From a virus (lineage: Duplodnaviria; Caudoviricetes), in the IMG/VR virus record IMGVR_UViG_3300020123_000077, positions 1-62,711 of that record: a stretch of 62,711 nucleotides of DNA; one strand, 5' to 3'. Every line of letters starts with the position of its first letter. Positions within the stretch are counted from its first letter, which is position 1. The notes below the pieces were generated by a model. That model worked only from the letters and a program-made list of their open reading frames with translations, had not been told where the DNA came from and searched no databases. Positions 8,196 to 59,482 of the stretch are shown one piece after another. The position numbers were made by a program, and so were the translations under genes.

Positions 8196-10315
8196 CAGGA
8201 TTTAAAGTATCCAATTTCGGCGGGGTCGTCCCGCGTTTGGGTGCACGATTATTGCCGAATGAAAGTGCGCAGACCGCACAAAACGTTAAGTTATTCTCCG
8301 GTGAGTTGCGTTCATGGTTTCGCCCGTTATTGATTAATACGCCCACTAAAGGCGGTGCATTACAGTCGATGTATCGAATCTATTCAACTAGTAGCGATTA
8401 TTGGTTGACGTGGACGGATGATGTGGACGTAGTAAAAGGGCCGATTGCCGGTGACACGGCTTTCAAGATTTACTATACAGGCGATACAACCACTTCTTCG
8501 AATAGCGTGGCTGGGCCGAGAAAAACAAACTTGGCTCTTGCGACTTCCGGCGGAACGGATTACCCGCACGATTATCTTGAGTTAGGTGTTCCAGCCCCTG
8601 GGTCTGCCCCGAGTGTCATTGGAACCGGTGGAACGTCAACCAATAGCGTGACGCGTGTCTATACCTATACGTATGTGACCTCTACCGCGAGTTGGGCAGA
8701 GGAAGGGCCGCCAAGCGCTACAGGAACCGGGACGGGCAAGGCAGACGCGACATGGGTGATCTCCAATTTATCGACAGGAACCACTGGTAAATATGCATTC
8801 AGCGGTGCGATCAAACGCATCTATAGAACGTTGACAGACAATTCCGGAAACACGAATTATCAGTTGGCATTAGACGGCGTACCGATTGCAACTACGAGTA
8901 CAAATGACACGGTAGCGGATGGTGCGCTCGGCGTTATCTGTCCGACATTCATTAATGGGGTTCTCAATTCGGAATGGGTTGGGCCACCATCTGATTTAAC
9001 CGGGATTATTGCGTTACCTAACGGTATTTTTGCAGGATTCTCCAAGAATCTGATTTGTTTCAGTGAGCCGTTTTACCCGCATGCATGGCCGATCCGATAC
9101 AGATTGGCAACGAACTTTAATATCGTCAGTCTTGGTGTATATGGGCAGACGTTAATCGTGACGACGAAAGGTTATCCGTACGCTGTGACGGGTGTGCGTC
9201 CTGACTCGATGGCGATGGCAAGGATTGAAGAATCTCATCCCTGTGTCTCAAAGCGTAGCACGGTGAGTTTCCCGTTTGGGGTTGCATGGGCGACACCAGA
9301 TGGTCTTGCATTGGCTGGGGTGGGGGGGGCCATTAACGCCATTGAACCATTCATGAAACGAGACGAATGGCGTAGTCAGTGTTTTCCTGACACGATCATC
9401 GCTCATCAGTTTCAGAATACGTATTTCGGATTTTTCTACAACGGCGTATCGGGTAATAATTTCATCTTCGATAAATCGAATTCGGAAGGCCCGCTGACAT
9501 TCGGCAATAATAATGTGCAGGGCGCATGGAATGATCCAGAGACATCAAAACTGTACCTGTTGCAGAATGGTCGAATTTATCAGTGGGATAGCGACACCAT
9601 TAACAACACTCCGTTTGAGTGGAAAAGCAAAGTATTTGTCACGCCAAACCCAATTAATTTTGGTGCTGCTTTAATCGATGCGGATTACGATGCACTGTCG
9701 CAAACGAATGCAATCGATACGCAAATAGCGTCAGATAAAACAACAAATAATCTGATATTAGGAACGGGTGCCGCTGATACACAGCACTTGACTGCATGGG
9801 CATCTACTACTGTTTATAGCACCAGCGATGTGCGAGTAAGTACGGATGGCGTGAAGATGATTATCTGTACAGTAGCCGGTACTTCTTCATCGTCAGAGCC
9901 GACTTATCCGAATCTGCTTGGCGGAACTACTACAGACGGCGCGGTACGTTGGAAGCAAATATGGGAAGAGCAAGGCGTCACGAAAGGTGCATTAAGAGAC
10001 GCTGCGTTACGTGGTCATACAACTGATCCTAACGACCCTATTATTGACGGTGCATACGGTAACGTACAGGGTTTTCCGCTTCGCAGCAGTTTGCTTGTCG
10101 GCGGCACATATCCAAATTATGATCAACGCATTTTGACGTTCGAGGCCTATGCGGATGGTGTATTGAAAACGTCTCAGGTATTGACGAGTCGCGATCCTAT
10201 TAGACTGCCAAAAGGCTTCAAATCCGATACGTGGGAATTCAAGTTAATCGGCAATATCAACGTCAGATATTTCAAGGTCAGTGAAACGTCGCAGGAACTT
10301 GGAGTGATTCAATGA
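8192..10315 (+). CDS. Tail nozzle/tubular protein B-like
   Basis: RVYTYTYVT...EEGPPS, LPNGIFAGF, FSEPFYPHAWP..Y and WKSKVF motifs of 933W-like tail proteins. Confidence 0.75.
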   Translation: MTGFKVSNFGGVVPRLGARLLPNESAQTAQNVKLFSGELRSWFRPLLINTPTKGGALQSMYRIYSTSSDYWLTWTDDVDVVKGPIAGDTAFKIYYTGDTTTSSNSVAGPRKTNLALATSGGTDYPHDYLELGVPAPGSAPSVIGTGGTSTNSVTRVYTYTYVTSTASWAEEGPPSATGTGTGKADATWVISNLSTGTTGKYAFSGAIKRIYRTLTDNSGNTNYQLALDGVPIATTSTNDTVADGALGVICPTFINGVLNSEWVGPPSDLTGIIALPNGIFAGFSKNLICFSEPFYPHAWPIRYRLATNFNIVSLGVYGQTLIVTTKGYPYAVTGVRPDSMAMARIEESHPCVSKRSTVSFPFGVAWATPDGLALAGVGGAINAIEPFMKRDEWRSQCFPDTIIAHQFQNTYFGFFYNGVSGNNFIFDKSNSEGPLTFGNNNVQGAWNDPETSKLYLLQNGRIYQWDSDTINNTPFEWKSKVFVTPNPINFGAALIDADYDALSQTNAIDTQIASDKTTNNLILGTGAADTQHLTAWASTTVYSTSDVRVSTDGVKMIICTVAGTSSSSEPTYPNLLGGTTTDGAVRWKQIWEEQGVTKGALRDAALRGHTTDPNDPIIDGAYGNVQGFPLRSSLLVGGTYPNYDQRILTFEAYADGVLKTSQVLTSRDPIRLPKGFKSDTWEFKLIGNINVRYFKVSETSQELGVIQ

Positions 10316-11340
10316 CAATCCGGCCTGAGATACCTGATGTTCAAGGTGTAACTGATCCAGCGGCAACAAAGATTTTGAAGGCAATGAAAAATGCCTTCGA
10401 CAGTATTACCGGAAGATCGCAACAACCGATCAAGACACTTGGTCAGGATGCCAATTTTTTCGGCGTCGTCAGCAAGGTCAATGAAATAATTAACCGGCTG
10501 CAGTCGAATATTGGCGTGGGTGGGGTCTCTGGTGTCGCACATCCCAATCCGACTGCGGTGAGTACGAGTACGGGAACATTCAATAATGTGACGGTTGGAT
10601 CAGGCGGTTTGGTGACGAGCGGTACAAACGTCGCTTACCTGACGCAGAATCAGACCATTACGTTGTCAGGCGATGTGTTAGGGACGGGTACGTCGTCAAT
10701 GCCCAATACATTGGCGCAGATCACGACCGCCTCAAGCGCCGGGTCGTCCAGCCAAGCTGCGACTATTACATGGGATGCAAAGGGACGAATCACTTCGGTG
10801 ACGACGGCGGCAATTACGCCCGCTTCGATTGGTGCCATCTCGACAAGTTCGACGGTTACACCTGGAACCAATACGAAGATAGCCTACAACCAAGAGGGGC
10901 TGGTAACGGCAGGGTCAACTGCATCGGCGGGAGATTTGTCGAATGGCACTACGGGTTCCGGCGCGGTTGTCTTGGCATCGGCACCGTCCATTGCGAACGC
11001 GGCTTTGACTGGCGTAACGACTGCATCGGATGTCGCTATATCAGGTCAATTGACGGCTACGCGTGGCGGCCTGTCTATTTTAGCTAATACAACCTCAACC
11101 GGGTCAGTTAATGGTGCCGTAGCCATTCAACTCAATGGCGTGACAAAGGGGTACGTGGGACTCGATGGCGCTGGTGTTTTTTCTTTACTCGATGTGAATG
11201 GTAATGTGAAGGCGCAAATTTTGCCAAGCGGGTTTAGTATGGTCAATACAGTAACAACATCTTCGGCGGCGCCATCGACTCATAAGATAGCGATGGTGAT
11301 CGGAACATCAACGTATTTTCTTTTGGCGTCGAATGTTTAA
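10312..11340 (+). CDS. Ser/Thr-rich tail/fibre protein
   Basis: ITWDAKGRITS and GLVTAG fibre-type repeats; follows the nozzle gene. Confidence 0.6.
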   Translation: MTIRPEIPDVQGVTDPAATKILKAMKNAFDSITGRSQQPIKTLGQDANFFGVVSKVNEIINRLQSNIGVGGVSGVAHPNPTAVSTSTGTFNNVTVGSGGLVTSGTNVAYLTQNQTITLSGDVLGTGTSSMPNTLAQITTASSAGSSSQAATITWDAKGRITSVTTAAITPASIGAISTSSTVTPGTNTKIAYNQEGLVTAGSTASAGDLSNGTTGSGAVVLASAPSIANAALTGVTTASDVAISGQLTATRGGLSILANTTSTGSVNGAVAIQLNGVTKGYVGLDGAGVFSLLDVNGNVKAQILPSGFSMVNTVTTSSAAPSTHKIAMVIGTSTYFLLASNV

Positions 11341-11342
11341 TT

Positions 11343-11870
11343 ATGGAATATAAAAGTATTTCTTACAGTGTTTCATACAGAGATATTGTTCATAAGAATA
11401 ATATTGAAGCACAAGATATTATTAACGCAAAAGATTGCGATGCACTTGCTGTGCGCGAAAAAATATTGCGTCTTCAGGATGTTATGTTATCAATGCCAGA
11501 TAAGGTTGAGTGCACTAATAAACATTGGTTCGCACCAGGCGTTTATGGTAGAGAGATGCTTATACCAAAAGGCACTGTCATCATTGGTAAAATTCATAAG
11601 CATGCGCATTTAAATATAGTTTCTCGTGGCAAGTGTTCTGTTATGACGGAGTTCGGCCCGATGGTGATTGATGCAACCTCAACACCTCACACTTTTACAT
11701 CTGAACCTGGCACCAAGCGTGTCGTAGTGGCACTTGAAGATGTGGTATGGACTACCATCCATTTGAACCCAACCAATACACAAGATTTGGAAGTATTGGA
11801 AAATGAAATTATCGCAAAGAATTATACTGAGTTATCATTTGCAGAAGAGATTAAGGAGTGCTTACCATGA
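11343..11870 (+). CDS. Cupin-fold protein
   Basis: HWFAPGVYGREM.IPKG..IIGKIHKHAH...SEPGTKR...WTTIH; common before podovirus ejection genes. Confidence 0.7.
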   Translation: MEYKSISYSVSYRDIVHKNNIEAQDIINAKDCDALAVREKILRLQDVMLSMPDKVECTNKHWFAPGVYGREMLIPKGTVIIGKIHKHAHLNIVSRGKCSVMTEFGPMVIDATSTPHTFTSEPGTKRVVVALEDVVWTTIHLNPTNTQDLEVLENEIIAKNYTELSFAEEIKECLP

Positions 11871-13213
11871 CATGGGGATACGTAGCTGTAGCAGCGGCCA
11901 CCGTAGTAGCGGCGGCTGTATCGTCCGATTCTTCTCGCAAGGCATCGAATACAGCTGCAGACGCAGCCAAGTACTCTGCCAAGACCGCCGCAGATATCCC
12001 GACACAGCAATGGAATTATTATAAAGATAATTACATGCCTGTTGAGACGAGTCTTATTGACAATGCGCAAAATGCAGGGTCTCAAGATGAATACAAACGT
12101 GCAGAAGGTGCTGCTAATGCAGACGTCACGAACTCATTCGATCAGGCTCAGAAACAAACTCAGTCACGTCTGCAGAGTTATGGCATTAATCCAGCTTCCC
12201 CAGCATACCAAAGCGCTACCGGTAGTGTTGATCTTGCAGAGGGTGCATCTAAAGCAGGGGCAATGACGGCAGCGGATAACTCTACGAGACAACTTGCTTA
12301 TTCAAAACAATTGGACGTAGCCGGATTGGGACGCAATATCCCGGCGCAATCATCGGCAAGCTTGGCAAATGCGTCCGCCCTACAGCTTGCTCAAAATAAG
12401 AATTCATTCTACCAAAATCAGCAAAATCAAGTGGCAAATGGTCGCGGTATTCAGGCGATTGGTCAGCTTGGATCTCAGGCATATAACTGGTACAACAATT
12501 CCAATAGCAATCCAACACCAGGAGGTGCTGGAAGTTCCATGCCAGCAGGGTATTATGGCTCAGGTGGTCAAGGAAATATTGGCACAACTGGATATTATGG
12601 AACAGCTGAGACAGATGCTTTAGCAGGTGCTGGTGCTTTGGCTGATGGCGGCAAGGTATCTCGCTACGCAAGTGGAGGACTGGTTGCTGATGAGCCATCG
12701 AAAGAAGTCTTGGACGGCCTTAAACAACGTCTCATGGATCGCGGTATCGGTGAAGACGATGCGGAACAAGCACATCAAAGCGCGAAGAAAAAATACAAAA
12801 ACGGTGGCCCAATCACCCCACATATGAAGATGAAACCATTGGGTTACGCAAAAGGTGGCGCGATCAGCGATCAAGGTTTGGACGCGCAAGAACCGCAGGA
12901 ACAACAAGACGCTTCAGAGATGGGGAAGCTTGATGGCCCAGGCACGGAAACATCTGATTCCATTCCTGCGCAGATCGATGGTAAGCAACCAGCAGCCTTA
13001 TCGACTGGTGAAGTTGTGATGAATGCTAGCGCTGTTAAATTGAGCGGTGAGGACATTCTAAATGCCATCAATAAGGCTGGTCTACAGGCACGCAAGAAAC
13101 AACCTCAACCACAAGAGGCAGACCAAGAAGAACCAATGCCGCAGCAACAAACTGCCTTTAAAAAAGGCGGCAAGGTAAAAAATCGTTACGCAACATCTGG
13201 ACTAGGGGCATAA
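11858..13213 (+). CDS. Internal virion/DNA ejection protein
   Basis: Hydrophobic Ala-rich N-terminus; A.ADV..SF...YGINP.S motif; C-terminal GPGTETSDSIPA...LSTGEVV motif. Confidence 0.7.
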   Translation: MLTMTWGYVAVAAATVVAAAVSSDSSRKASNTAADAAKYSAKTAADIPTQQWNYYKDNYMPVETSLIDNAQNAGSQDEYKRAEGAANADVTNSFDQAQKQTQSRLQSYGINPASPAYQSATGSVDLAEGASKAGAMTAADNSTRQLAYSKQLDVAGLGRNIPAQSSASLANASALQLAQNKNSFYQNQQNQVANGRGIQAIGQLGSQAYNWYNNSNSNPTPGGAGSSMPAGYYGSGGQGNIGTTGYYGTAETDALAGAGALADGGKVSRYASGGLVADEPSKEVLDGLKQRLMDRGIGEDDAEQAHQSAKKKYKNGGPITPHMKMKPLGYAKGGAISDQGLDAQEPQEQQDASEMGKLDGPGTETSDSIPAQIDGKQPAALSTGEVVMNASAVKLSGEDILNAINKAGLQARKKQPQPQEADQEEPMPQQQTAFKKGGKVKNRYATSGLGA

Positions 13214-13214
13214 C

Positions 13215-14699
13215 ATGAATTTTGCAGATGTCGGATTGATGTCACAAGGCTATAACCAAGGACAAGAGGAAGCCAATCAAGCGCAGACTAGTAATATCGG
13301 TTTGGCCGAACTACAGAGAACGACGAATAATGCAGCACAGATGCGTTCAGCTGTAGCAAATGCTGATCCTAATTCTGGACGTATGGGTATCTATAATGCC
13401 ATGCAGGGAGTCGCTAAAAATCAGGGTGATCTCAACACTTATACCCAAGCACAAACTGCTTCACAAAATACGCCGCAACAAGCATTAGCACAACTTGCCA
13501 GTGACGCGATTCGCGGCGTGCCGCCTAGCGTAGCAGAGCAGAATTTCAACATGTTAATGCCTGGTCAGATGCAACCGGGAAGTCTAGAGTATGGACGCGA
13601 TCCAAAAAGCGGCGACATTATGGTTAAGGCACTTAAACCAGACGGCACTGATACACCAATGATTAATGCCACGCAATTCGTGCGCATGAATGAGAAAAAA
13701 GTACAAGTTGCACCAGGTGCCAAGTTGGTAGGTGAAACAACTGGTAATACCACTTCTGAAAATGCGGATAATTGGATTATTTCAAGAGATGGAAATACCG
13801 CAATCAACAAAGCTACTGGAGAAGTCAAGGCCACCGGTTCAGGTAGTAAAAATAATATTGTCACGACCACACGCAAAGACTCGGAAGGAAACGAACGTCA
13901 ATACATGTGGGATACGTCACAAAATAATTGGGTTGGTGGAGCGCCACCAGAAGGTAACGATGCGCCTCCTCCTAACGTCCGCAAGAATTTACCAGTGCTT
14001 GAGGCTGCAACCAAGGTGCTGTATGATGCGCCCGGCATGGCGACAATCGACCCGGTAACTGGTCATCCTGTTCCAACGCCAGATGGACAGAAACGCGCCG
14101 TCGTTGTCAATCAATTGGCACTCGCAAACCCTTCGATTGATCCGCATACATTGGCAGACATCGCCATGAATGGCAAGCCCGTACGCTATCCTGATGGCTC
14201 GACGGCGATGCGTTACAACGGGAAGGATATCAAGTTTGGTAGTGGTGCACCGCCCGCACAACCGGCACCACAATCTTCTGATACACAGTCACCAGCACCA
14301 TCCGCACAAGCGGCACAAGTCACACCGCAGGCGCAACCTGCTACACAGACTAAAAGCAATCCAGTACCAAAGCCAGTGCCAGTAGTTAGCCAAGACCAAA
14401 TGGACACACGTGCCCAGCAAATGGCACAGATGAATTCATTGAGCGGAAGAGATACTAGTCGGCGAGATAAGATGATTGCAGACAGACAATCTGATTTGCA
14501 GAATAATTTCAATACGCAGTTAAATATATTGAAAAATTCTACAGACCGTAAAACGCTTAGTAGCGTCTCAGAATGGATGGACGATCATAGAGGGGATATG
14601 ACAAATGCGCAAATTAAGCAGCTTAGAGACGTGAGTAGCACCAAGCGATTCTCAAAAGGTGGCATGGTTTCACGTCAACAAAAATATGGCCTGGAATAA
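13215..14699 (+). CDS. Putative ejection protein
   Basis: Gln/Asn/Pro-rich; lies between ejection genes. Confidence 0.55.
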   Translation: MNFADVGLMSQGYNQGQEEANQAQTSNIGLAELQRTTNNAAQMRSAVANADPNSGRMGIYNAMQGVAKNQGDLNTYTQAQTASQNTPQQALAQLASDAIRGVPPSVAEQNFNMLMPGQMQPGSLEYGRDPKSGDIMVKALKPDGTDTPMINATQFVRMNEKKVQVAPGAKLVGETTGNTTSENADNWIISRDGNTAINKATGEVKATGSGSKNNIVTTTRKDSEGNERQYMWDTSQNNWVGGAPPEGNDAPPPNVRKNLPVLEAATKVLYDAPGMATIDPVTGHPVPTPDGQKRAVVVNQLALANPSIDPHTLADIAMNGKPVRYPDGSTAMRYNGKDIKFGSGAPPAQPAPQSSDTQSPAPSAQAAQVTPQAQPATQTKSNPVPKPVPVVSQDQMDTRAQQMAQMNSLSGRDTSRRDKMIADRQSDLQNNFNTQLNILKNSTDRKTLSSVSEWMDDHRGDMTNAQIKQLRDVSSTKRFSKGGMVSRQQKYGLE

Positions 14700-14702
14700 A
14701 TA

Positions 14703-17123
14703 ATGGATGCTGTGCCAATCAGTCTTGATGAGCTTCTTTCATCCGCGCCACCGAAACAACCAGACAATAGCGTATCGCCAGCAGACTTTCCAACAATATC
14801 ACCAGATGTGCAAATGGAGCGCGATAAAACGCGGCTGGCGATGTTGCAGAACGAGATGCAAAGCGTATCTCCTGATGCGAAATCCAGTCTGCAAAATGAA
14901 ATCGATAATACCTCTTCCAATCTGCAAAAAGGTACGCCATTCGGTGCGCCAGTTTCACGCGGAACGAAAATCGCCAGCGAGTTAAAGAAAACGTCGTATC
15001 AACAAAGCGATGCCGTATCGATTTCGTTTGACGATCTTTTCCCTGATTCACCGAAAGTCGCTCTACCTCCTGCAGCCCAGCCACAACAACCGGGAATGCT
15101 CAGCAATATCGGCAATGCAGCAAAGAGCGGTTTGGTAGATTCATTGAAAGACTTGGGTTCGGCTAGTGATGCGTTATTGAAAAACAATAGTGAATACAAA
15201 CCGTCTTCAGAAGAATTTGCAAAGCCATTAGAGTGGGGCGACTTACTTCATCCCACCAAGGCAATCCCGAAAGCCGTCTATCAACTGAGTAAAGGTGCAC
15301 CGGTCTTGGCTGGTGGCGTGGCTGGTGCCGCAGTTGGTGAGGCGGTCGCGCCGGAAGGTTTGGTTGCTGGCCCGTTAATTGGCGGCGGTCTTGGTGCGGC
15401 AGCGGTCGATACCGCACAGTCTATCGGCCCACTCTATGCCGATGAATTGAAGGCAACGCCGGATGATAAAGATGGCGCTTTTGACAGAGCATTATCAAAG
15501 GCCGGTACATCCGGTGCATTTACTGCTGCAGGTTGGGCAGCATTCGGTTTCGCGCCATTCAAGAATGCGGTCAAGGATTTATTACTTCAGGCGTTTGCCG
15601 TCCAGCCAGCGATTGGTGAAACTCAGAATGCGGTACAAAATGTACAAGCCGGAAAACCAGCGACTGAAGGTATGGGTGCATCGATTCCTGGGGCCGTTGT
15701 AGGAACGATCTTGCCAGCTGCAGGGCTACATGCTGCCCATGCTTTGGTCGGTGGACGCGAAGCACCAGTTGATACGAGTCGCCCAACAGACGCCACCCGG
15801 CCAGTAGATCAAGTACAACCGCAATCAGCTGAGCAACCGCAACAACCGTTAGCCCTACCGGCCCCTGAACAAAAACCAATCACCGTCGATCAATCCGGTA
15901 AAGCGATCACAGCAGACCAAGCGCAGAATAATGCACAAGTCGGATTAACGCCTGATGTCGTCGCCGCGCAAACCGCGCATCCCGGTTTCTCCCAATTGTC
16001 ACCTATCGAACAAGCGCGGATTGACGCACAAACCGTGCAGTCTGGTGGTGACATTTCCAATCTAAACGATGTGCGCCGCAACAATGCGCAGTTAGTCGCG
16101 ACATACGGCGAGAATGCCGCAGTGCGTCATGTGATCGAATCCGGTGACATGGGTGGTCTGGCACAAGCCATGCTGGATATTGCGCCGAAAGTCGAGCAAG
16201 TACGCTCCACATTGAAACAAGGTCAGCAAACCCGCGATATCACCAGTGATGTGATGACGGCGATTGATGAACTTGGCAGGATCAAGGCTGATGGAAAGAC
16301 CGTGCAGGAAGTGATGGCGCATGGATTTCCAAATGAGGTGAGTTATGAAGGACAGCAACTGATCGATTTTTTGGATAAGAACCAGAATAATCCGCAGAAA
16401 ATTGCGCAGTTCATGGAGAATTACCTTCAGAACGTGCAAGATATGGGCGGCATTCCGTCGAACGTCCGAGGAAAAGCATTTGATATCTTGGCTGAACGCC
16501 AATTTGCTAAGTCTGATGCAGAAAAAGCGAATGCCTTTTCACAAAAAGAAGGTCAGGAAGCGCAGCAGAAAAAGTCGGAAACGCAGTTAATGGCAGAACA
16601 GGCGCGTGCCGAAAGTGCATTAACCGAAATCGCCAAGGCAAAAGCATCCGGATCAGGCATCAATCCAGAACATCAGACAGCGATGGAAATCGCATTTGAG
16701 AATGCGCGAAAATTAAAGGAGAGTAAAAATGCAAAGCCTAGTGCCGAAAGCGCAGAGCCTTTACCAACAACAAAGGCAACAGTTAGCGAGCCAGTCCGCA
16801 CTGAAAGTACAAAGCCTGCAGCGCAACGCACAGAGCGCGTACCCATCAGTGCTGAAGCTGGTAACGCAGGCAACCCACGATCCATACGTGAGAATGGCAG
16901 TGCATCGCGCCCTGAAGTCAACACTGCCGTAAAAGGAAATGCAGCTAAAATAGTTGCGGAACGTGAATCGCAAAAACAATTATCGCAGATCATGGTCAAG
17001 ACCAAGGCGATTGACAAGGTATCCGGTCGGCGCGTCACGATGACAAAACCAGCCGATCAGGCCATGAAAGAAGTGAATTACCATATCCAAACCATGGAGG
17101 CATTACTAGAATGTCTGGGCTAA
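14703..17123 (+). CDS. Large ejection/polyvalent protein with Gly/Ala hydrophobic segments and a DdrB-like ParB-associated region
   Basis: Gly/Ala-rich membrane-like helices; AMLDIAPK...DITSDVMTAIDEL..IK..G..V region. Confidence 0.55.
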   Translation: MDAVPISLDELLSSAPPKQPDNSVSPADFPTISPDVQMERDKTRLAMLQNEMQSVSPDAKSSLQNEIDNTSSNLQKGTPFGAPVSRGTKIASELKKTSYQQSDAVSISFDDLFPDSPKVALPPAAQPQQPGMLSNIGNAAKSGLVDSLKDLGSASDALLKNNSEYKPSSEEFAKPLEWGDLLHPTKAIPKAVYQLSKGAPVLAGGVAGAAVGEAVAPEGLVAGPLIGGGLGAAAVDTAQSIGPLYADELKATPDDKDGAFDRALSKAGTSGAFTAAGWAAFGFAPFKNAVKDLLLQAFAVQPAIGETQNAVQNVQAGKPATEGMGASIPGAVVGTILPAAGLHAAHALVGGREAPVDTSRPTDATRPVDQVQPQSAEQPQQPLALPAPEQKPITVDQSGKAITADQAQNNAQVGLTPDVVAAQTAHPGFSQLSPIEQARIDAQTVQSGGDISNLNDVRRNNAQLVATYGENAAVRHVIESGDMGGLAQAMLDIAPKVEQVRSTLKQGQQTRDITSDVMTAIDELGRIKADGKTVQEVMAHGFPNEVSYEGQQLIDFLDKNQNNPQKIAQFMENYLQNVQDMGGIPSNVRGKAFDILAERQFAKSDAEKANAFSQKEGQEAQQKKSETQLMAEQARAESALTEIAKAKASGSGINPEHQTAMEIAFENARKLKESKNAKPSAESAEPLPTTKATVSEPVRTESTKPAAQRTERVPISAEAGNAGNPRSIRENGSASRPEVNTAVKGNAAKIVAERESQKQLSQIMVKTKAIDKVSGRRVTMTKPADQAMKEVNYHIQTMEALLECLG

Positions 17124-17425
17124 TTACAAACGATGATGATCCTCTGCCATTGGGAGCCGCTGCCGCTGCCGGTGAAGTGCTGGATGCGATCAATGAACTA
17201 TCCGATAATGTCGCGACTTTATTTTCAAAGTTAAACGCATCGGTTGAAAAGGGCGCGGATAAGCAAACATTGAAAGACATTATGTCGGCTATGGCAAAAA
17301 GCAATCAGGCGATGATTGATCACTTGCGTGTGATGTCGGCACCGAAGAAACCAAGGCAATGGACGTTTACCGTCAAGTATGATTCGTATGGTGATCTTGC
17401 CTCGATTGACGCGAAAGAATTATAA
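17111..17425 (+). CDS. Hypothetical protein
   Basis: GGAGG RBS; WTFTVKYD..G C-terminus; operonic spacing. Confidence 0.55.
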   Translation: MSGLITNDDDPLPLGAAAAAGEVLDAINELSDNVATLFSKLNASVEKGADKQTLKDIMSAMAKSNQAMIDHLRVMSAPKKPRQWTFTVKYDSYGDLASIDAKEL

Positions 17426-17427
17426 AA

Positions 17428-17868
17428 ATGGCCTCATTTGAAGACTATCATCCGAATCAAGATCCAACATTTTACGCCGTCATGATGGACTTGGGGCGCA
17501 TGGCTGATAATGTCGCAAAACTGATTGCGAATTGGCGCGCAATGGCGCAAGCCAGTATTGACCCACGTCCCAATATGGGCGCGGTTGCCGATAGCTTGTT
17601 GGGTCGTTTGTTCAGGGTTTATACGTTTTTCCAAAACAACCCAACAGAATTAACGCGTATCGCGGCAAAAATCGGCATGACTGAGCAAGCGATTACGGAT
17701 GCGCTGATTGCGCGGCGAGACTCCATTAGAACATTCAAAAATGCGCCGAAAGACACGATAGCTAACGCAAAGGCAGCGGTGGATGCGCTTGCACTGGCAT
17801 TCCCAGCTCCTAATACGCCATCAGTCACACCCGTATTATTGGACGCGACACTTCCGGCGACTTGGTAA
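17428..17868 (+). CDS. Hypothetical protein
   Basis: Operonic ORF with helical composition. Confidence 0.6.
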   Translation: MASFEDYHPNQDPTFYAVMMDLGRMADNVAKLIANWRAMAQASIDPRPNMGAVADSLLGRLFRVYTFFQNNPTELTRIAAKIGMTEQAITDALIARRDSIRTFKNAPKDTIANAKAAVDALALAFPAPNTPSVTPVLLDATLPATW

Positions 17869-18492
17869 ATGGCTACCTATGGCTTTCTGTTTTGGGCAAC
17901 AACGAACCACGGAACGCCTGGCCAGAATGATTCTCCGGTACTGCATACAGATGCCTACCCAACCACATACGGAAACGGCGCGACGGCTGGCTATGTGGCA
18001 GATCAGCCGAATCAGATTGATGAAACAAACGATATTGACTACCGGCTGATTGGTACGCATTACATCGTCAACAACACAGTTGTTTATGATTTCAGGATTG
18101 ATATTACTGGAACGTTGACCATCAATTCATCGAACGGTGATCATGGCAATGCAGGTGGTTATACCTATAGTGAGTTTTTCGACAATACTACTTCCTTGGT
18201 TGTAGTAGTTGATTCAGCAACCGGGCAATTATCCAACCAGTTTTGGGATGCATCTGGTGTGAAACGCACCAGTGCTTCTGATTGGGTCACAAATCAAACC
18301 TCAATATCAAAATCTGTTTCAACATTTTTCAAATGGAGAAATGGCAAAATAAGCGCTGGCGGCTCAACCTATTGGAACTACATACAGGTTGCCTCGTCTG
18401 GTGGTGCTGGTGCGATACAGTCTCCATTCTTCAAAAGTAATTTGGATGGTCTTGGTGCTGGTGGCCGATTCTTTAATAATAGGTTAGGATAA
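17869..18492 (+). CDS. Putative virion beta-sandwich/lectin-like protein
   Basis: Rich in aromatic, Thr and Asn residues; directly adjacent to both neighbours. Confidence 0.5.
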   Translation: MATYGFLFWATTNHGTPGQNDSPVLHTDAYPTTYGNGATAGYVADQPNQIDETNDIDYRLIGTHYIVNNTVVYDFRIDITGTLTINSSNGDHGNAGGYTYSEFFDNTTSLVVVVDSATGQLSNQFWDASGVKRTSASDWVTNQTSISKSVSTFFKWRNGKISAGGSTYWNYIQVASSGGAGAIQSPFFKSNLDGLGAGGRFFNNRLG

Positions 18493-19817
18493 TGGCAAAA
18501 ATTAGCGTGTTGGCTGGCTCGACTGGCGTATCTGTAAATCTATTTATCAATAGCTCTACGAGCACCACAGGCGCGGGACAATCGGGCATCGTGTTTAACG
18601 CAGCCAGTTTTACTGCTTATTCCATCCGTCAAAGAACAACTGCTACGCCTATCACCTTGGCGACAAGCACCGTTGGAAATGGATGGACATCTGGTGGCTT
18701 CATCGAGATCGACTCAACCCATTGTCCAGGATGGTATAACTTTGACATACCGAACGCGGTTATCGGCACAGGATCGCCTTTTGCCAGCGTCCATTTTCAG
18801 GGCGCGGCAGGCATGGCTCCCTTACCGCTAGAGATAGAACTCACTGCATGGAATAATCAAGACGGTGTACGCGGTGGATTGACTTCTCTTTCGACCGCCG
18901 TGCCGGGGGCTGTTAACGGATTAATGATTGCCGGGACTAACTCGGCCTGTACTGTGAATATCGTCGGTACACACACAGGGAATCTAACTGGTTCAGTTGG
19001 TTCCGTTGTAGGCTCCGTTGGTTCCGTGACAACTGGCGTCACGAGCACATCCGTCACCGACAAGTCCGGCTATATTCTCTCCACCGGCACTCATACCAAT
19101 GCAGTTATTCCAACGGTCAATGTCGTTCAAACCGCGACTGTCAACAATCTTACATCGAATGCCTTGTCGCGTTATTTCGATACCGACGCAGGTACATACG
19201 CCACGTCTTCCGCGAACTCGGTGGTAAAACAGATCGCAGACAATGCCATTGGTGCTGGCGGCGCGCCTACTGTTGCGCAGATCGCTACTGCAGTATGGGC
19301 CAAGTTCGGCACCGGCACAGTCATGCTATCGACTGGTACGCACGTCGGGGCTGTTATCCCTACCGTGAATTCGATTCAAACATCCGCCGATGGCCGTATG
19401 GCCAATCTGGACGCCACGGTGAGCAGCAGAGCGGCGGCGGTGATTTTGGGAACGTCAACCAGCGCCGATATTGCCACCGGATTGGACGCGATCCGCGCCA
19501 AGACTGGTAATCTACCTTCTGCACCCGCAGCCACAGGTGATGCAATGGCCTTGACTTCCGGTGAGCGTACGACATTAGCAACGGTCATCACCACTTCATC
19601 GCTGACAGAATCGTATCGTGGCACAGGTGCTGGTGGATCAGTCGCACAAATGCTATATGAGATTCAGGCGCATGTCGGAAACTTTGTCTTGGTCGGCACG
19701 GCAACGTCTACCGGGGACGGCACCAAGTCACTATTGAAAGTCGATGGTACTACGACGGCAGCGACATTCCTCATCACCAGTACTGCAGCACCTAGCGGCA
19801 TCAAGCGGAACGCATAA
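18492..19817 (+). CDS. Ser/Thr-rich putative virion fibre protein
   Basis: GGFIEID...PGWYNFDIPNA domain; GSVGSV repeats; duplicated LSTGTHxxAVIPTVN; NLDATVSSR. Confidence 0.6.
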   Translation: MAKISVLAGSTGVSVNLFINSSTSTTGAGQSGIVFNAASFTAYSIRQRTTATPITLATSTVGNGWTSGGFIEIDSTHCPGWYNFDIPNAVIGTGSPFASVHFQGAAGMAPLPLEIELTAWNNQDGVRGGLTSLSTAVPGAVNGLMIAGTNSACTVNIVGTHTGNLTGSVGSVVGSVGSVTTGVTSTSVTDKSGYILSTGTHTNAVIPTVNVVQTATVNNLTSNALSRYFDTDAGTYATSSANSVVKQIADNAIGAGGAPTVAQIATAVWAKFGTGTVMLSTGTHVGAVIPTVNSIQTSADGRMANLDATVSSRAAAVILGTSTSADIATGLDAIRAKTGNLPSAPAATGDAMALTSGERTTLATVITTSSLTESYRGTGAGGSVAQMLYEIQAHVGNFVLVGTATSTGDGTKSLLKVDGTTTAATFLITSTAAPSGIKRNA

Positions 19818-20038: not shown

Positions 20039-23000
20039 GTTTGCGCGATTGCCTGAAAAAAGTAGGCCTATCCAAGCAGGATAGCGCCGTCGTGCGTGCT
20101 CTGGTGATGAATGAGAAAACGCCAAACAGGACAGCTGCCGAGTCAGCCAAGAGCGCGATTAGCAAAAGACTTGCCGAGTTGCATTCCGAGCGAGACTCGA
20201 TTAACAAGCAAGTCAATGACCATCTCTCTGGTAATAGTCAAGAAGAAAAAATTGCGGAACCTGCATCACAAAAAAATGAAGCAGAGATTGCTGCCGCCAA
20301 AGTAGAAGAAGCCAGCAAAGAAGCGGCACATAGTCCACTCAACGACAAGCCCCTCCCAACACCGGCTCAACATGAGGCCGGAAACTACGCCAAAGGCCAT
20401 GTCAATGTTTTAGGTATGGATATCACCATTGAGAATCCACGCGGCTCTGTGCGGTCTGGAATCGATCCCAATGGCAAAGAATGGCATGTCAAGATGACGG
20501 AACCCTATGGATACATTAAAAGAACTGTGGGCGGAGACAAAGAACATATCGATGTTTATTTGGGAAAGCACCTCACTGAAGATAATCCAGTCTTTGTGAT
20601 TGACCAGATCGACCCATCCACAAAGAAATTTGATGAACACAAGGTAGTTTTCGGTGCAAAAGGTTACGGCGAAGCAAAAGATATTTACGACAATCACTTT
20701 TCTGATGACAGCGGTGAGGTGCGTCGCGGTGCTGTGACCAAGATGGACTTGCAGTCATTCCAGAAATGGTTAAAGGGTGACACCACGACCGCACTGAAAT
20801 ATCAGGAACCGAAGACCACATCAAAGGCTGCGCCGGAGCGCCGCGCCGATACGACTACTCGCAAGTCAGTGTCCGATATGTCTGCCGATGAACTACGCCA
20901 GGCATTATTGACCGATCATTTGACAGGAATTAACAATCGCCGGGCTTACGAAGAGGCTGAAAAGTTACCAATTCAAGTCTCTTCTGATGCCGATTCATTG
21001 AAGTGGATCAACGATAATATGGGGCATGAATCCGGCGATAAAATGCTCAAGGCAATCGGTGAAGCATTCCGCTCGGAAACAGATCAAGCTTACCATATTT
21101 CTGGTGATGAATTTGTCGTACAGGCACATACACCAGAAGAAGCGCAACAGATCATGGATCGGGTTGCAGATCGCCTTTCTTCCGCTATACTACAAGCAGA
21201 CTCGCCAAGTGGTGATCGCATAACAGTTAAAGGAATAGGGGTAAGTCATGGAAAAGGAACCAGTCTCCAAGAAGCCGAATACGGACTCCAGCGAAATAAG
21301 CAAGAGCGACAAGATGCAGGGTTACGCAGTGCCCGTGGAACAGAGCCTCCAGGCACGACTCGAAGCGGAGGGAATCGGGAAGGGGTGGAAGATATCAAAA
21401 ATCACCCTGCCGCCGAAAGTAACGCATTAGAACAACCGGAAACAAAGCCGCCTCGCGCATTAACCAGGGAGGCGGCTAATCGCCTCGCCAAGCAATTCAC
21501 CGATCAAGGCAGTCCAACGCAAGTTATTCCTCATCCGACCGAACAGGGCAAGTATGCTTTGTTTAGTCGCGAAAAAACAATTGATGAAATACGCTCAAAT
21601 TATCCAGATGCAAAATTAGATATCCAAGAAAGAAAAGATTCTATCAATGTATCGCGTATTGTAATTGCGCCAGATGACAGGAATAAAGGTATCGGCACAA
21701 GGATAATGACTGATTTAATTGATCACGCTGATAAAACTGGAAAAACTATAACGCTATCTCCATCAAATGATTTTGGTGGATCAATTGTGCGCTTAAAGGC
21801 TTTCTATAAATCTTTTGGATTTGTAGAAAACGCAGGAAGAAATAAGGACTTCACTATTAGTGAATCTATGTATAGATTGCCACGTGATATTGATACAAAA
21901 TTCAAACGCGGGGAAGAGGGTAATGGCCTCAAATCATCGATGTTATCTGTCATGGCGAAGAACATCAAAGAGTCCTTCCCGCATGCCGCCGATATCGAAG
22001 TCCTTAAATCAACCCATGATGCACCAGAAGATTTACTATCGCAGATTCATGATGTAGATGGGCACGACACGATCAAGGGCGCTTGGTATGACGGCAAGGT
22101 CTATCTTTTTGCAGATAACATGCACTCACTCAAAGATGCCGAGACAACCATTCTGCACGAACTTGGGCACGATGGCATGCGCAAGTTGTTCGGTAAAGAC
22201 CTTGACCCTGTCCTGAAGAGTGTTTATGACGGTAGTGTCAAAGTCCAACTGGAAGTCGCCAAACTGCGTAAACAATTTCCTGATTTATCGATTACACAAG
22301 CAGTCGAAGAACACCTTGCCGACCTTGCTGCTTCTAAAGAACGTCCTACCTATCTCGGTAAAGTCGTCAGTTACATTCGTGACTTCTTGCGTCAGCACGG
22401 ATTTTTGACGAAGTTTTCTGATAACGATATTCTGAATATTGTTGAGTCGAGTCGTGGCGCATTGACTGGTACGCAAGGGGATTTTTCTGCCGCATTTAGC
22501 CGATCAATTAAAAACGAACTAGATGCCGCAAAAGAAGCATATGGCAAAGCACCGACCGCAAAGAATCTAAAAATATTAGAAGACTTGAAAAGTAAATATG
22601 CAGAGATTCCAAAATCTGAAGAAAGTGATTATCGTATTAGCCATCGCGCTCCCCAATCTGAATTTGGGGCACCATTACATGATTTAACAAAATTATATCC
22701 TGATGATATATATAGCTCTAAAGCGGCTCATTACTATGGGCATTTTGGACATGGTGACAAAATGGATGAGGCGTCTATAAAAATGGCGCAAAGTTTTCGA
22801 GATAAGCCAAATGCAAATGTGAAAATATATCGTGCCGTACCAGAGGGTGTTACTGGAATAAATTCTGGTGATTGGGTAACAATAAATAAAGAGTATGCAA
22901 AATATCATGGCGAATCTCAGTTTGATGGAAAATATAACATTGTAGAAAAAACCATTAAGGCAAAAGATATTTTCACAAATGGAGACTCTATTCATGAATG

Positions 23001-25581
23001 GGGATACGATCCAAATCATACGGCAATGTTTAGTCGCCCAACAAAGGCGCTAGATACGAGCCTTGATGAAATGAAAAAAATCAGCGATATAGCCTACGGC
23101 AAATTCCGTGAGTCACTCGCTACCATTGATCGTGAAACTGGAACTGTCGATGCCTCGTTAAAAACATTGCGTGATTACTTCAAATCCATCCCACAGGAAG
23201 ACCGCTGGAAGTCGATGGCCGAGTTTCAAAAAGGCGGCGTCAATGCCGTGAAAGATGCAAACGCCAGAGAGTTCTATGGTACATGGTCGAAAGCAGCGGA
23301 AGATCGTGCGCAAACCATGAAGGACTTCGATGAAGGATTTCTGAAAGAGACAATTCCAAACTACTTCTCGCAGATGTGGAAAGATCCGAAGTCAGCGATG
23401 GAATGGTATCAACGCATGATGGGAAAAGGCCCGCTTGAAGGCGGCAAGAACTTCATGAAGAAGCGTACCTATGCCAGCTATGAAGAGGGTATGTCGTGGA
23501 AAGTCTTTACAAAAGACGGTGACGCCAAGTTCTTTAAGACAGAAGAACAAGCGCGTGCCGCTGCAGGTAAAGACGATATGGTCAAGCCACCACTGGAGCC
23601 AATTTCCAATAATCCTACCGACATCATGCAATTGTCACTGCAGCAAATGGACAAGTTCATTGCAATGCACCAATTCAGAAACTATCTTGATGAAAACGGA
23701 TGGATTAAAACCGTGCGGCGTGGCGAACAAGCGCCGGATGGCTGGGCAAGAGTGGAAGACCCGTCATTCAGAACGCAACGTGCTGTCGTCATCAATGACA
23801 AGGAAACAGGCGAAGCGAATGCGGCAATCATCGGATTCGATTACATGGCACCGGCCTTGGTAGCGAAAGACCTGAACAATTACCTGTCAAAAGGGTTGGA
23901 GCAGCACGAGTTATGGCGCAACTTCCGCTATGCGCAAAACCTGATGTTGTCCGCCCGTCTCGGTTTATCCGCATTTCACGCAGGTTTCACGACGATGGAC
24001 ACGCTGGTGTCGCACGTCGATGTCGGTGCACGCTATCTATTGGATGGGGACGTTGGCAGCGCCGTCAAGATGTGGGGCAAGGCAATTACCTCCCCATTGA
24101 GCGCTCCGCTGGAAGGGCGTCGATTACTGAAACAGTTCTACGGACAGTCTGCAGCCGATCCGCACACTGCAGCAATCCTTGACATGATCACCAAAGGCGG
24201 TGCTCGTGGCAAGATGAATCCGACGGACTTCAATAATTCCATCAATACGTTTAAACAGGCATGGGACTCCAAGGATTTAAAAGGCACCGCCTTGCATGCG
24301 TTACCAGCGATGATGGAAGCGATTATGTCGCCTATAGCTAGTCACCTGGTTCCTTGGCAAAAGATGACTGCGCGTGTTCTGCTTGCGAAGTTTGAACTCG
24401 ATCACGTGGCCGAACAGTTGGGTAAACAAAAAGGTGATTATGCAGCGATTACCAAGGCCATGGGCGAAGACGCGATGCGTCAGATTGCCTACAAGGTTGT
24501 GCAGCAAGTCGATGACAGGCTGGGTCAGGTAGCGTATGACAATATGCGCTGGAACAAAATGGCGAAGCAGGTTGCCCAGGCATCGATCCAATCGGTCGGC
24601 TGGAACGTCGGTACGGCCAACGTCATCTTCGGTGGGGCGCGTGACGTACAGCGTCTATTCGCACCAGAACAGTTGTTGGCTCCATTGGATAGAGAAGGCA
24701 AGGTACACGGCACGTTAAGCAGAGTGACTGGCCGCTTGTCTTATCTGATTGCTTTGAACACTACGGTCGCCATGATGGGAATGGGTTTGCAGTATGCGAT
24801 GAGTGGCGAAGACCCAAAAGACTTGCGAGACCTATTCTTCCCGCGCACAGGGCGGAAAAATCCAGATGGAACCGATGAGAGGATTTCCCTGCCAAGCTAC
24901 ATCAAGGACGAATGGGCGTTAAGCCAGCATCCGATTCAAACAATCCAGCATAAACTCCATCCAAGTTTCTCGATGGTAGCCGAGTTATTGAACAACAAGG
25001 ATTTCTACGGAAACCAGATTGTCAATCCGGATGATCCATGGACAAAAATAGCCGGTCAGGTAGCTGGATATCTTGGTCAGTCCGTAACGCCTTATGCGAT
25101 TACCGGCATGCAGCAGAGCTTACATAAGGGAACGAGTCCTGAGATGGCAGCATTACCGTTTATCGGCGTGACACCGGCCCCTGCATCGGTATCGCGTACG
25201 CCGTTTGAAAGCTACGTGATCGATAAATACCAGGATGCATTCCATACCTCCAAGACGCCAGAAGGCGCAGAGAAAGCACAGGCACGTAGCGATGCGATCA
25301 ATGCCATCAAGAACGGGAAAGAACCCGATCTCACCATGTTCTCGCCACAGGAACGATCCAATATCTATACGAGCGCACGTACACCAATGCAAACCAGTTT
25401 GTTCAAACGTCTACCTCTGGAACAACAGTTGAGCGCTTACGATAAGGCCACCGTGGATGAGGTGCAAAAGTATAGATTGCTGCCTATCCTGTTACATAGT
25501 TACGCGATTCATGGATCACAAATGGATCAAGATGCAAGAGCACGTGCGCAAGAGATTATTACGGCAAAACAAAAATCATGA
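20035..25581 (+). CDS. Large polyvalent (virion-ejected) protein: inorganic-pyrophosphatase-like, GGDEF, GNAT, zincin and ART-like domains, helical C-terminus
   Basis: AGNYAKGHV...YGYI....GGD.EHIDVY...FDEHKV; TDHLTG..NRR...D.DSLKWINDNMGHESGD...SGDEF; RNKGIGT...FYKSFGF; HELGH; IYRAV...GDWVT...HEWGY. Confidence 0.85.
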   Translation: MSLRDCLKKVGLSKQDSAVVRALVMNEKTPNRTAAESAKSAISKRLAELHSERDSINKQVNDHLSGNSQEEKIAEPASQKNEAEIAAAKVEEASKEAAHSPLNDKPLPTPAQHEAGNYAKGHVNVLGMDITIENPRGSVRSGIDPNGKEWHVKMTEPYGYIKRTVGGDKEHIDVYLGKHLTEDNPVFVIDQIDPSTKKFDEHKVVFGAKGYGEAKDIYDNHFSDDSGEVRRGAVTKMDLQSFQKWLKGDTTTALKYQEPKTTSKAAPERRADTTTRKSVSDMSADELRQALLTDHLTGINNRRAYEEAEKLPIQVSSDADSLKWINDNMGHESGDKMLKAIGEAFRSETDQAYHISGDEFVVQAHTPEEAQQIMDRVADRLSSAILQADSPSGDRITVKGIGVSHGKGTSLQEAEYGLQRNKQERQDAGLRSARGTEPPGTTRSGGNREGVEDIKNHPAAESNALEQPETKPPRALTREAANRLAKQFTDQGSPTQVIPHPTEQGKYALFSREKTIDEIRSNYPDAKLDIQERKDSINVSRIVIAPDDRNKGIGTRIMTDLIDHADKTGKTITLSPSNDFGGSIVRLKAFYKSFGFVENAGRNKDFTISESMYRLPRDIDTKFKRGEEGNGLKSSMLSVMAKNIKESFPHAADIEVLKSTHDAPEDLLSQIHDVDGHDTIKGAWYDGKVYLFADNMHSLKDAETTILHELGHDGMRKLFGKDLDPVLKSVYDGSVKVQLEVAKLRKQFPDLSITQAVEEHLADLAASKERPTYLGKVVSYIRDFLRQHGFLTKFSDNDILNIVESSRGALTGTQGDFSAAFSRSIKNELDAAKEAYGKAPTAKNLKILEDLKSKYAEIPKSEESDYRISHRAPQSEFGAPLHDLTKLYPDDIYSSKAAHYYGHFGHGDKMDEASIKMAQSFRDKPNANVKIYRAVPEGVTGINSGDWVTINKEYAKYHGESQFDGKYNIVEKTIKAKDIFTNGDSIHEWGYDPNHTAMFSRPTKALDTSLDEMKKISDIAYGKFRESLATIDRETGTVDASLKTLRDYFKSIPQEDRWKSMAEFQKGGVNAVKDANAREFYGTWSKAAEDRAQTMKDFDEGFLKETIPNYFSQMWKDPKSAMEWYQRMMGKGPLEGGKNFMKKRTYASYEEGMSWKVFTKDGDAKFFKTEEQARAAAGKDDMVKPPLEPISNNPTDIMQLSLQQMDKFIAMHQFRNYLDENGWIKTVRRGEQAPDGWARVEDPSFRTQRAVVINDKETGEANAAIIGFDYMAPALVAKDLNNYLSKGLEQHELWRNFRYAQNLMLSARLGLSAFHAGFTTMDTLVSHVDVGARYLLDGDVGSAVKMWGKAITSPLSAPLEGRRLLKQFYGQSAADPHTAAILDMITKGGARGKMNPTDFNNSINTFKQAWDSKDLKGTALHALPAMMEAIMSPIASHLVPWQKMTARVLLAKFELDHVAEQLGKQKGDYAAITKAMGEDAMRQIAYKVVQQVDDRLGQVAYDNMRWNKMAKQVAQASIQSVGWNVGTANVIFGGARDVQRLFAPEQLLAPLDREGKVHGTLSRVTGRLSYLIALNTTVAMMGMGLQYAMSGEDPKDLRDLFFPRTGRKNPDGTDERISLPSYIKDEWALSQHPIQTIQHKLHPSFSMVAELLNNKDFYGNQIVNPDDPWTKIAGQVAGYLGQSVTPYAITGMQQSLHKGTSPEMAALPFIGVTPAPASVSRTPFESYVIDKYQDAFHTSKTPEGAEKAQARSDAINAIKNGKEPDLTMFSPQERSNIYTSARTPMQTSLFKRLPLEQQLSAYDKATVDEVQKYRLLPILLHSYAIHGSQMDQDARARAQEIITAKQKS

Positions 25582-55588: not shown

Positions 55589-55589
55589 G

Positions 55590-57920: not shown

Positions 57921-57946
57921 CACGTCTTTAAACTTGCGGAGGACAG

Positions 57947-59462: not shown

Positions 59463-59482
59463 TTGGGCTTTAGGAGAAAATT

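Follow-up and report, generated by a model that had tools for sequence, protein, structure and literature searches.

The window analyzed here is the whole 62,711-nt stretch of IMG/VR record IMGVR_UViG_3300020123_000077, the complete genome of an uncultured phage that carries direct terminal repeats, is rated 100% complete and, judged by its sequence, is an F116/933W-type podophage. Its plus-strand virion genes run from terminase and portal through head, tail and internal virion protein genes and end in the gene for a giant protein, P0001, in which a GGDEF domain of the kind found in diguanylate cyclases follows a pyrophosphatase-like (InPase) domain. An earlier reading of the letters alone (hereafter, the sequence-only reading) had proposed this pair, together with the idea that the protein is ejected from the virion and changes host cyclic di-GMP (c-di-GMP) or makes a decoy nucleotide. 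We find that the GGDEF domain is genuine, that its active site is conserved while the arginine of the usual feedback site is missing, and that its closest kin populate giant virion-module genes of many uncultured phages.

The open reading frame (ORF) of P0001 extends over 1848 codons with no internal stop, and the peptides on which the domain had been called, SGDEF among them, are all in frame. Within it, the Pfam profile for GGDEF (PF00990) matched residues 293–424 (nt 20911–21306) with an E-value of 1.2e-10 and 41.9 bits (cut-off 23.8), covering profile positions 3–157 of 161, and a six-frame search of the genome scored the same family at 45.8 bits. Searching PDB sequences with residues 276–435 (phmmer) returned 43 distinct chains at E≤0.01, headed by DgcR (6zxm; E 5.3e-9). 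An AlphaFold2 model of residues 270–446, built from 27 sequences, reached a predicted local distance difference test (pLDDT) value of 95.5 and a predicted TM-score (pTM) of 0.89, and Foldseek returned 95 PDB matches to it at E≤1e-3. The matches listed are GGDEF-domain structures, with a probability of 1.00 for DgcR, PleD, SiaD, WspR and DgcZ (TMq 0.5–0.62), and TM1788 was matched as well. These results confirm a true GGDEF domain, far beyond a chance match.

Aligned to DgcR, the domain keeps the D-x-LTG-x-NRR start, the DxD-x-x-K-x-x-ND motif (D318, D320, K323, N326, D327), the GHxxGD motif (G334, D335), the signature pair D358/E359 and the distal K422 and R425, in agreement with the earlier claim that metal- and GTP-binding residues are retained. 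In DgcR, the aligned counterparts of N326 and D335 are the N and D that contact guanine (in its DID..KxIND and GHxxGD motifs). We take D318, N326 and D335 to be the counterparts of PleD D327, N335 and D344, and the equivalents of PleD E370/E371 and K442 to be present as well. The domain thus shares with the cellular cyclases PleD, WspR, DgcZ and DgcR the fold and the catalytic, metal- and guanine-binding residues, but differs from them in several respects: it comes without a sensory or receiver domain and without an RxxD I-site, it has an SGDEF signature preceded by His in place of Arg, and it ends in an additional Arg-rich loop, with TM-scores to these enzymes that are modest (0.5–0.62). Its first helix is ~11 residues shorter than in cellular cyclases by the DgcR alignment. 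At the I-site, the Arg of the DgcR motif (RKSD) aligns to a gap, P0001 having ETD at this place, and the corresponding columns are variable across 66 clade copies; the RxxD feedback site, common in the GGDEF family although not defining it, is therefore missing from P0001.

Domains of this type proved abundant. In a HMMER pass over 1.84 billion representatives (clusters at 50% identity), the number of matches fell from 32099 at E≤1e-3 to 1192 at 1e-10 and 238 at 1e-30, and at least 238 such clusters match the clade. Among proteins of 1016–3234 aa, a word-seeded search retrieved 65 others with the same GGDEF type, whose precomputed Pfam labels are typical of polyvalent proteins: InPase, LPD38, ART-PolyVal, LPD1, LPD5, MuF_C, RadC and AHH. 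The pooled clade proteins (n = 192) are mostly giants: 155 have at least 1000 aa, 25 have 300–999 aa and 12 are shorter than 300 aa. Among PLSDB plasmids, 169 records matched; the 15 listed, with E-values no lower than 1e-13, come from ordinary cellular cyclases or from stretches without annotation, and plasmid-borne clade members were rejected on these grounds. Since the plasmid matches listed are of this kind, the clade looks phage-specific in the collections searched.

Conservation was assessed over 198 domain copies, drawn from the 192 proteins (eight of them with two GGDEF domains) and from two stand-alone phage proteins. The clade-type domain consists of an N-terminal helix, a catalytic core and an Arg-rich C-terminal loop. 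The copies retain the residues that bind metal, guanine and phosphate. D318, N326 and G334 are invariant; D320 is kept in 190 copies, K323 in 193, D327 in 194, G357 in 197, D358 and E359 in 196 each, K422 in 193 and R425 in 177. D335 is found in 178 copies, N taking its place in 17 and T in 3. The first signature position is S in 154 copies, G in 36 and A in 5, and residue 354 is H in 158 and R in 38. A C-terminal loop specific to the clade (G429-x-R431-x-x-R434-G435-x-x-P438) is kept in 185–191 copies. By these traits, the GGDEF domains of polyvalent proteins form a clade of their own that is compact, has no feedback site and is common in uncultured phages. Two GGDEF domains in tandem occur in eight of the 192 proteins (P0074, P0075, P0078, P0086, P0102, P0114, P0134 and P0136), and both copies look intact in seven of these. 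The first copy of P0075 has a degenerate GGPGF signature, and P0074 carries T at the guanine-contacting position in both copies, which hints at an altered base preference.

Upstream of the GGDEF domain, as the sequence-only reading had it, lies a polyvalent-protein type I pyrophosphatase-like domain that covers positions 2–135 of the 135 in profile PF18823 and is separated from the GGDEF match by 45 residues in Pfam coordinates. Its residues E133, R140, Y158, D168, D173, D200, E201 and K203 are kept in 48–52 of 52 aligned domains, and the acidic ones among them fit the four active-site acidic residues named in the main text of PMC5512222. InPase occurs in 52 of the 187 clade proteins in which the GGDEF match is complete, at most 407 residues from the GGDEF domain in all 52; in 25 of them the two domains lie within 70 residues, as against 4.8 expected for random placement, counts that are inflated by kinship among the clade proteins. 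Both orders are found among the close pairs (13 with GGDEF first, 12 with InPase first), and no Pfam domain intervened in the nine non-adjacent pairs scanned, in which Pfam detected both domains. Because InPase and GGDEF cluster beyond random placement, their arrangement argues for a functional link, of which removal of pyrophosphate (PPi) would be the simplest form. Judging from domain content, the link is optional in both directions: most of the 518 GenBank phage records that match a combined InPase and GGDEF query do so through InPase, with no GGDEF beside it. Of the proposed coupling of cyclase and pyrophosphatase, the adjacency and the intact acidic residues thus stand, but as an option rather than a rule of the clade. 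A single origin of the adjacency found no support: a FastTree phylogeny of the 198 copies needs 17 changes for 28 adjacent cases (mean of shuffled data, 26.5); the trait looks scattered on this tree, which, with 170 residues, is weakly resolved.

The gene lies among virion genes. On the circularly closed genome, the head module (54071..62650, plus strand) joins the tail genes that lie at the beginning of the window, and the virion genes upstream of the giant gene span 8192..19817 on the same strand (Table 1). P0001 ends this block; later genes lie on the opposite strand, the nearest one convergent and ending at 25576. Promoter and terminator counts before the giant gene equaled those of shuffled sequence. 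The portal protein matches 406 phage records, including F116-type Pseudomonas and Stx2-converting phages. As the earlier reading had supposed, the carrier is a polyvalent protein, combining several unrelated enzymatic domains (InPase, GGDEF, an acetyltransferase-like GNAT domain and an HExxH region) in one chain, and it is syntenic with the giant ORF of 933W.

Table 1. Features of the giant gene and of the virion genes in the window
Feature	Position (nt)	Strand	Basis and remarks
Giant polyvalent protein P0001, 1848 aa	20035..25581	+	ORF list, translation, Pfam, PHROGs; final gene of the plus-strand virion block
InPase (polyvalent-protein type I pyrophosphatase-like), residues 111–247	20365..20775	+	PF18823, E 4.4e-46
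GGDEF domain as kept in the phage clade, residues 276–440	20860..21354	+	Pfam, PDB search, conservation, model, Foldseek
SGDEF signature, residues 356–360, instead of GG[DE]EF	21100..21114	+	Codons TCT GGT GAT GAA TTT
GNAT acetyltransferase-like domain, residues 534–599	21634..21831	+	Acetyltransf_7, 27.9 bits, cut-off 27 (borderline)
Zincin-like metallopeptidase region, residues ~640–800	21952..22434	+	HELGH at residues 708–712 (nt 22156–22170)
phrog_2579 domain (PHROGs label 'ParB C-terminal domain'), residues 861–997	22615..23025	+	E 1.8e-40
C-terminal region, 848 residues (1001–1848), mostly helical	23035..25578	+	phmmer
Large terminase	54071–55588	+	PHROGs
Portal	55590–57704	+	PHROGs
Major head protein	61373–62650	+	PHROGs
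Tail spike or fibre gene	5898–8195		PHROGs
Internal virion protein	8192–10315	+	PHROGs
Short tail fibre-like gene	11343–11870	+	PHROGs
Weak DNA-ejection or virion-structural match	11858–13213	+	PHROGs/Pfam
Five ORFs without family match	13215–19817	+	PHROGs/Pfam

The same setting recurs beyond this genome. In an IMG/VR scan, 249 loci encoded a relative, and in the 80 kept the frame around the GGDEF domain has at least 1000 aa in 72, fewer than 300 aa in five and 300–999 aa in three. A complete giant N-terminus with at least 5 kb upstream was available in 59 loci, and the first 24 of these, minus the near-duplicates L010 and L027, formed a neighborhood sample of 22 loci with 119 ORFs that were compared with PHROGs. 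Matches to tail, head, connector, internal virion or DNA-ejection families lay at most 7 kb upstream, on the same strand, in 14 of the 22; the other eight comprised one with lysis genes, one with a reverse transcriptase only and six with no informative match, and none of the 22 showed a replication-type neighborhood by PHROGs. Gene context thus supports a virion-module location for the whole class, which by itself does not prove packaging. The reverse transcriptase (locus L009, 1542–2894; phrog_1423, E 1.7e-106), upstream of a GGDEF giant, may belong to a diversity-generating retroelement.

Phage 933W has a 2806-aa giant ORF in the same place (ST933Wp72, with LPD5, LPD1, MuF_C and LPD38), and a nearer relative, Achromobacter phage CF418P1, a syntenic ORF of 2684 aa with InPase, LPD3 and LPD38. 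P0001 has the InPase domain and the HExxH region in common with the CF418P1 giant (HExxH region, BLASTP E 1e-9), whereas the 933W giant aligns in the HExxH region alone (E 0.001) and is devoid of GGDEF and InPase; the enzymatic cassettes therefore vary between related phages, as those of polyvalent proteins would. In other giants of the clade, GGDEF is found together with the domains of the 933W giant (LPD5, LPD1, MuF_C and LPD38): P0005, for instance, combines GGDEF, LPD5, LPD1 and LPD38 in one protein, and LPD38 (PF18857) was also found in P0002 and P0004. The giants of 933W and of the 933W-type phage Sp5 (ORF80, 2793 aa) share with P0001 the place at the end of the virion block, the polyvalent architecture and the putative zincin-like region. 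Deletion of ORF80 is reported to leave Sp5 heads without tails, ORF80 being needed for tail formation (PMC5155283), the only experiment on a 933W-type giant that we found in the literature; by analogy it points to a structural role, and it does not demonstrate delivery. Against GenBank phages, the giant ORF of P0001 had no nucleotide match by megablast.

Downstream of the GGDEF domain, P0001 continues with further domains of its own. At the GNAT-like region, where Pfam places a borderline Acetyltransf_7 match at residues 537–598, Acetyltransf_10 and Acetyltransf_1 remained under the cut-off and phrog_10691 matched residues 516–627. The zincin-like region, which has no Pfam match in P0001, was found by phmmer in 39 of the 192 clade proteins; the phrog_2579 region, too, has no Pfam match. 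The C-terminal 848 residues gave no match in Pfam, in PHROGs (also when searched in pieces) or by tblastn against phages. A C-terminus of the P0001 type is present in 15 of the 192 proteins (P0001 and 14 others), all giants, and never co-occurs with the LPD38-like C-terminus present in 34 of the 192. Aligned with hhalign, the two groups matched with a probability of 48% and an E-value of 1.8e-4 over 30 columns only, and an N-x-D-F-x-G-x-P-I motif, located inside the LPD38 region, is common to both; a protein atlas gave LPD38- and LPD39-bearing clusters as the nearest look-alikes, which serves as a lead only. The AlphaFold2 model of this part (14 sequences) was poor (pLDDT 53.9, pTM 0.36). A hydropathy scan returned no 19-residue window above 1.2 and hence no clear membrane helix.

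Outside giant genes, the closest relatives in cultured phages are small proteins. The GGDEF domain matched 94 records of GenBank phages, all at less than 60% identity; the close matches are genes of 152–156 aa in Pseudomonas Yuavirus (YuA gp44, MP1412, NEU2024 and others) and in Bordetella Vojvodinavirus (CN1, CN2, FP1, MW2 and LK3), many of them annotated as diguanylate cyclase by the depositors, and the other matches are weak, with E-values above 1e-8. The stand-alone proteins are of the same compact subtype, with 36–41% identity over 92–96% of the domain, and, like the fused form, have the N-terminal helix, the full set of catalytic residues and, C-terminally, the R-x-x-R-G-x-x-P loop; they lack a beta-hairpin of the fused form and are encoded as separate genes in a non-structural (early or host-interaction) region rather than in the virion module. 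Their neighbors include an antirestriction gene (Antirestrict, PF03230) in NEU2024 and a SprT-like gene in CN2. In the Yuavirus and Vojvodinavirus phages (L001, 5094–6956; L002, 5150–7319), the stand-alone GGDEF gene sits between a gene for a 'DNA-binding protein' and an antirestriction (PF03230) or SprT-like gene, and the products of such neighbors echo the partner domains of polyvalent proteins, here as separate genes. The 'putative pyrophosphatase' of Yuavirus and Vojvodinavirus was considered as an InPase and rejected, having no Pfam match at E≤0.01, so that a split-gene InPase/GGDEF pair is unsupported. Lysogens of Bordetella phage LK3 form more biofilm, an effect that the authors link to the gene without testing it (PMC8471281); this indirect observation is the sole functional hint for the stand-alone GGDEF that we found in print.

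What the domain does for the phage can be argued from these data. c-di-GMP governs motility, pili, the biofilm matrix and receptor display. We put at about one half (~0.5) the probability that residues ~276–440 are a diguanylate cyclase, competent for catalysis and free of feedback, which a 933W-type polyvalent protein, made together with the virion proteins, carries as cargo. The giant protein would be assembled into or onto the particle via its C-terminal part and would enter the cell with the DNA, where the HExxH peptidase may cut it into pieces, a self-release cleavage of the kind proposed for the polyvalent class (PMC5512222). The GGDEF module would then pair with a second copy and turn two GTP into c-di-GMP and two PPi, which the adjacent InPase, where present, would clear. 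A fast, unregulated rise in c-di-GMP would be expected to yield a sessile host without pili or flagella; for the phage, the outcome could be superinfection exclusion or a changed envelope or, alternatively, disturbed nucleotide-based signalling. The tandem intact GGDEF copies fit an enzyme needing two half-sites, and the missing I-site fits an effector that is not throttled by its own product.

A bolder version, which we advance tentatively and regard as somewhat doubtful, has a few copies of the brake-free cyclase enter with the DNA together with the pyrophosphatase, so that c-di-GMP floods the cell within minutes, ahead of any phage gene expression. Such a cell would retract its pili, stop its flagella and remodel its surface, by which later phages would be excluded or the cell held in place, and the flood might also jam nucleotide-sensing immune effectors. 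Active cyclases turn over about once per second; assuming this rate, a handful of dimers would, as a rough estimate, bring a cell of ~1 fL to micromolar c-di-GMP in a few minutes. For either version, that phages gain from raised host c-di-GMP has a precedent by another route, and an analogy for P0001, in the Yip peptide of PB1-like phages, which raises host c-di-GMP through YfiN (PMC11461919); c-di-GMP has also been reported to induce plzR, a blocker of type IV pili (PMC8085984).

Several observations weigh against the picture of a cyclase delivered with the virion. In the active site, the first signature Gly is Ser and the Arg that precedes GGDEF in canonical enzymes is His (H354). No dimerisation element was demonstrated in P0001; a two-copy complex prediction (residues 270–446 with two GTP) scored 0.34 against a mark of 0.42, one control reaching 0.39, and is counted neither way. 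InPase is absent from 135 of the 187 clade proteins. Pfam finds no LPD38 (PF18857) in P0001, and the C-terminal region may be a divergent LPD38 counterpart, a relation on which the profile comparison is inconclusive. None of the 518 GenBank phage records covers at least 80% of the InPase and GGDEF query, and the close fused form is therefore absent from cultured-phage records at this sensitivity. The stand-alone relatives lie in an early or host-interaction region and not among virion genes, so a GGDEF protein needs no injection to be useful. Finally, our literature search turned up no phage GGDEF enzyme that had been tested by experiment and no activity, product, virion proteomics or infection data for P0001 or other clade members; the one paper returned by an exact-phrase search for a tested phage cyclase concerns the Yip peptide, and Yip is no enzyme.

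The main rival places the action at the other end of the infection cycle. The giant protein would be made late, and its cyclase could act in the producing cell before lysis, stopping motility or removing pili and receptors, while the C-terminal part alone would serve tail assembly. The place of the gene in the late virion block speaks for this, as do the role of Sp5 ORF80 in tail assembly (PMC5155283) and the Yuavirus and Vojvodinavirus proteins, which are cytoplasmic and encoded in a non-structural region, next to antirestriction genes. For a cytoplasmic late enzyme, however, it would be odd to be fused to a virion-module giant, as in 72 of the 80 IMG/VR loci, and the partner domains ART-PolyVal, PBECR1, AHH nuclease and InPase are of the kind predicted to act on the newly invaded cell (PMC5512222). 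On balance we consider late action unlikely, if the most serious competitor of the delivered cyclase.

Less probable still is an active nucleotidyl cyclase or transferase with a product other than c-di-GMP, be it linear pppGpG, a mixed cyclic dinucleotide or an oligomer, serving as an immune decoy, competitor or trigger. The clade is far from cellular GGDEF domains (only 1192 of the 32099 library matches reach E 1e-10, and the best PDB match E 5e-9; plasmid-borne cellular cyclases reach only ~E 1e-13 among the matches listed) and has traits of its own in S at the first signature position, H354, the short first helix and the conserved C-terminal loop. The replacement of guanine-contacting D335 by N or T in some copies is reminiscent of Hypr GGDEFs and their specificity switch. 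For polyvalent proteins, interference with host responses that use nucleotides has also been raised (PMC5512222). Against this, N326 and D335 are canonical in P0001 itself and in 178 of the 198 copies, the top fold matches are all diguanylate cyclases, and no result points to another product.

We give only a slim chance to a catalytically silent domain whose part in the giant protein would be structural or would lie in binding GTP or c-di-GMP. Some degenerate GGDEF domains are known to work as receptors, and the SGDEF signature and the His for the preceding Arg could be read in this way, but cyclases with SGDEF and AGDEF signatures have been reported to be active. Moreover, the I-site used by receptor-type GGDEF domains is absent, and the catalytic positions are near-invariant over 198 copies at 30–60% identity, the pattern given by selection for catalysis. 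An artefactual fusion, through an assembly chimera or read-through of separate genes, is hardly credible: the record is metagenome-derived and no cultured phage in the GenBank set has the same fusion, but 1848 codons are open without a stop, 65 other proteins of 1016–3234 aa and 155 of the 192 pooled proteins (at least 1000 aa) have the same GGDEF type in giant chains, and so do 72 of 80 independent IMG/VR loci.

The idea of a cyclase within polyvalent proteins is not new and has been known since 2017, when Iyer, Burroughs, Anand, de Souza and Aravind (J Bacteriol; PMC5512222) described GGDEF and InPase domains in such proteins and stated both the signalling-interference and the PPi-clearing hypotheses; the delivered-cyclase reading of P0001 is accordingly known in kind. 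Their class shares with P0001 a GGDEF domain in a phage giant with a zincin-like peptidase and InPase, and the predictions are the same as here, namely that the protein would be packaged and injected and would interfere with host nucleotide signalling, with InPase clearing PPi. P0001 differs in its order of InPase, GGDEF, GNAT and zincin, in having no LPD38 detectable by Pfam and in being short at 1848 aa. This comparison concerns the main text of that paper, whose supplements may list architectures like that of P0001, and its example from Acetonema longum (WP_004096050.1) was compared by description only. GGDEF is called 'not very widespread' in polyvalent proteins there, as against at least 238 clusters at 50% identity and 249 IMG/VR loci here. 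Enzymes that are carried in the particle and act at entry, with delivery demonstrated, include the T4 Alt ADP-ribosyltransferase (PMC5512222) and the virion RNA polymerase of N4; these have other folds and chemistry than P0001, whose delivery is inferred.

The present analysis defines the clade by its traits and shows it to be abundant in uncultured phages, clustered with InPase and set in a virion-module context, and it points to stand-alone relatives in cultured Pseudomonas phages, where the prediction could be tested; P0001 itself offers a clean domain order with a complete genome around it. If the cyclase were both active and delivered, phages would rewrite a central signal of bacterial lifestyle from the first moment of infection, with bearing on superinfection exclusion, phage behavior in biofilms and phage therapy, and this would be the first virus to deliver a bacterial second-messenger synthase as a virion protein.

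Further observations concern the remaining genome. The ORF after the portal gene (57947–59386, plus strand; 479 aa) has an N-terminal Methyltransf_11 match (E 4.6e-7) and, by tblastn, matches upstream of the giant gene in three of 80 related loci; it could be a head-associated enzyme. The minus-strand genes that follow the giant gene directly (25576–37835) form a metabolic block, which encodes a HAD/PNKP-like phosphatase, a GT2 glycosyltransferase, a three-domain thiamine pyrophosphate enzyme (785 aa), a DJ-1/PfpI protein, a SIS protein, a PfkB kinase, an HNH endonuclease, an NAD epimerase/dehydratase and a radical SAM-SPASM enzyme. The combination of SIS protein, PfkB kinase and HAD phosphatase resembles a heptose or sugar-nucleotide pathway and may serve surface or DNA modification. 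An ORF of 762 aa (27424–29712, minus strand) combines an Intein_splicing match (E 2e-12, residues 67–437) with radical SAM (residues 456–592) and looks like a phage radical SAM enzyme split by an intein. The product of the 26942–27415 ORF (minus strand, 157 aa) matches the C-terminal domain of the RNA polymerase alpha subunit with 27.2 bits (cut-off 23.8).

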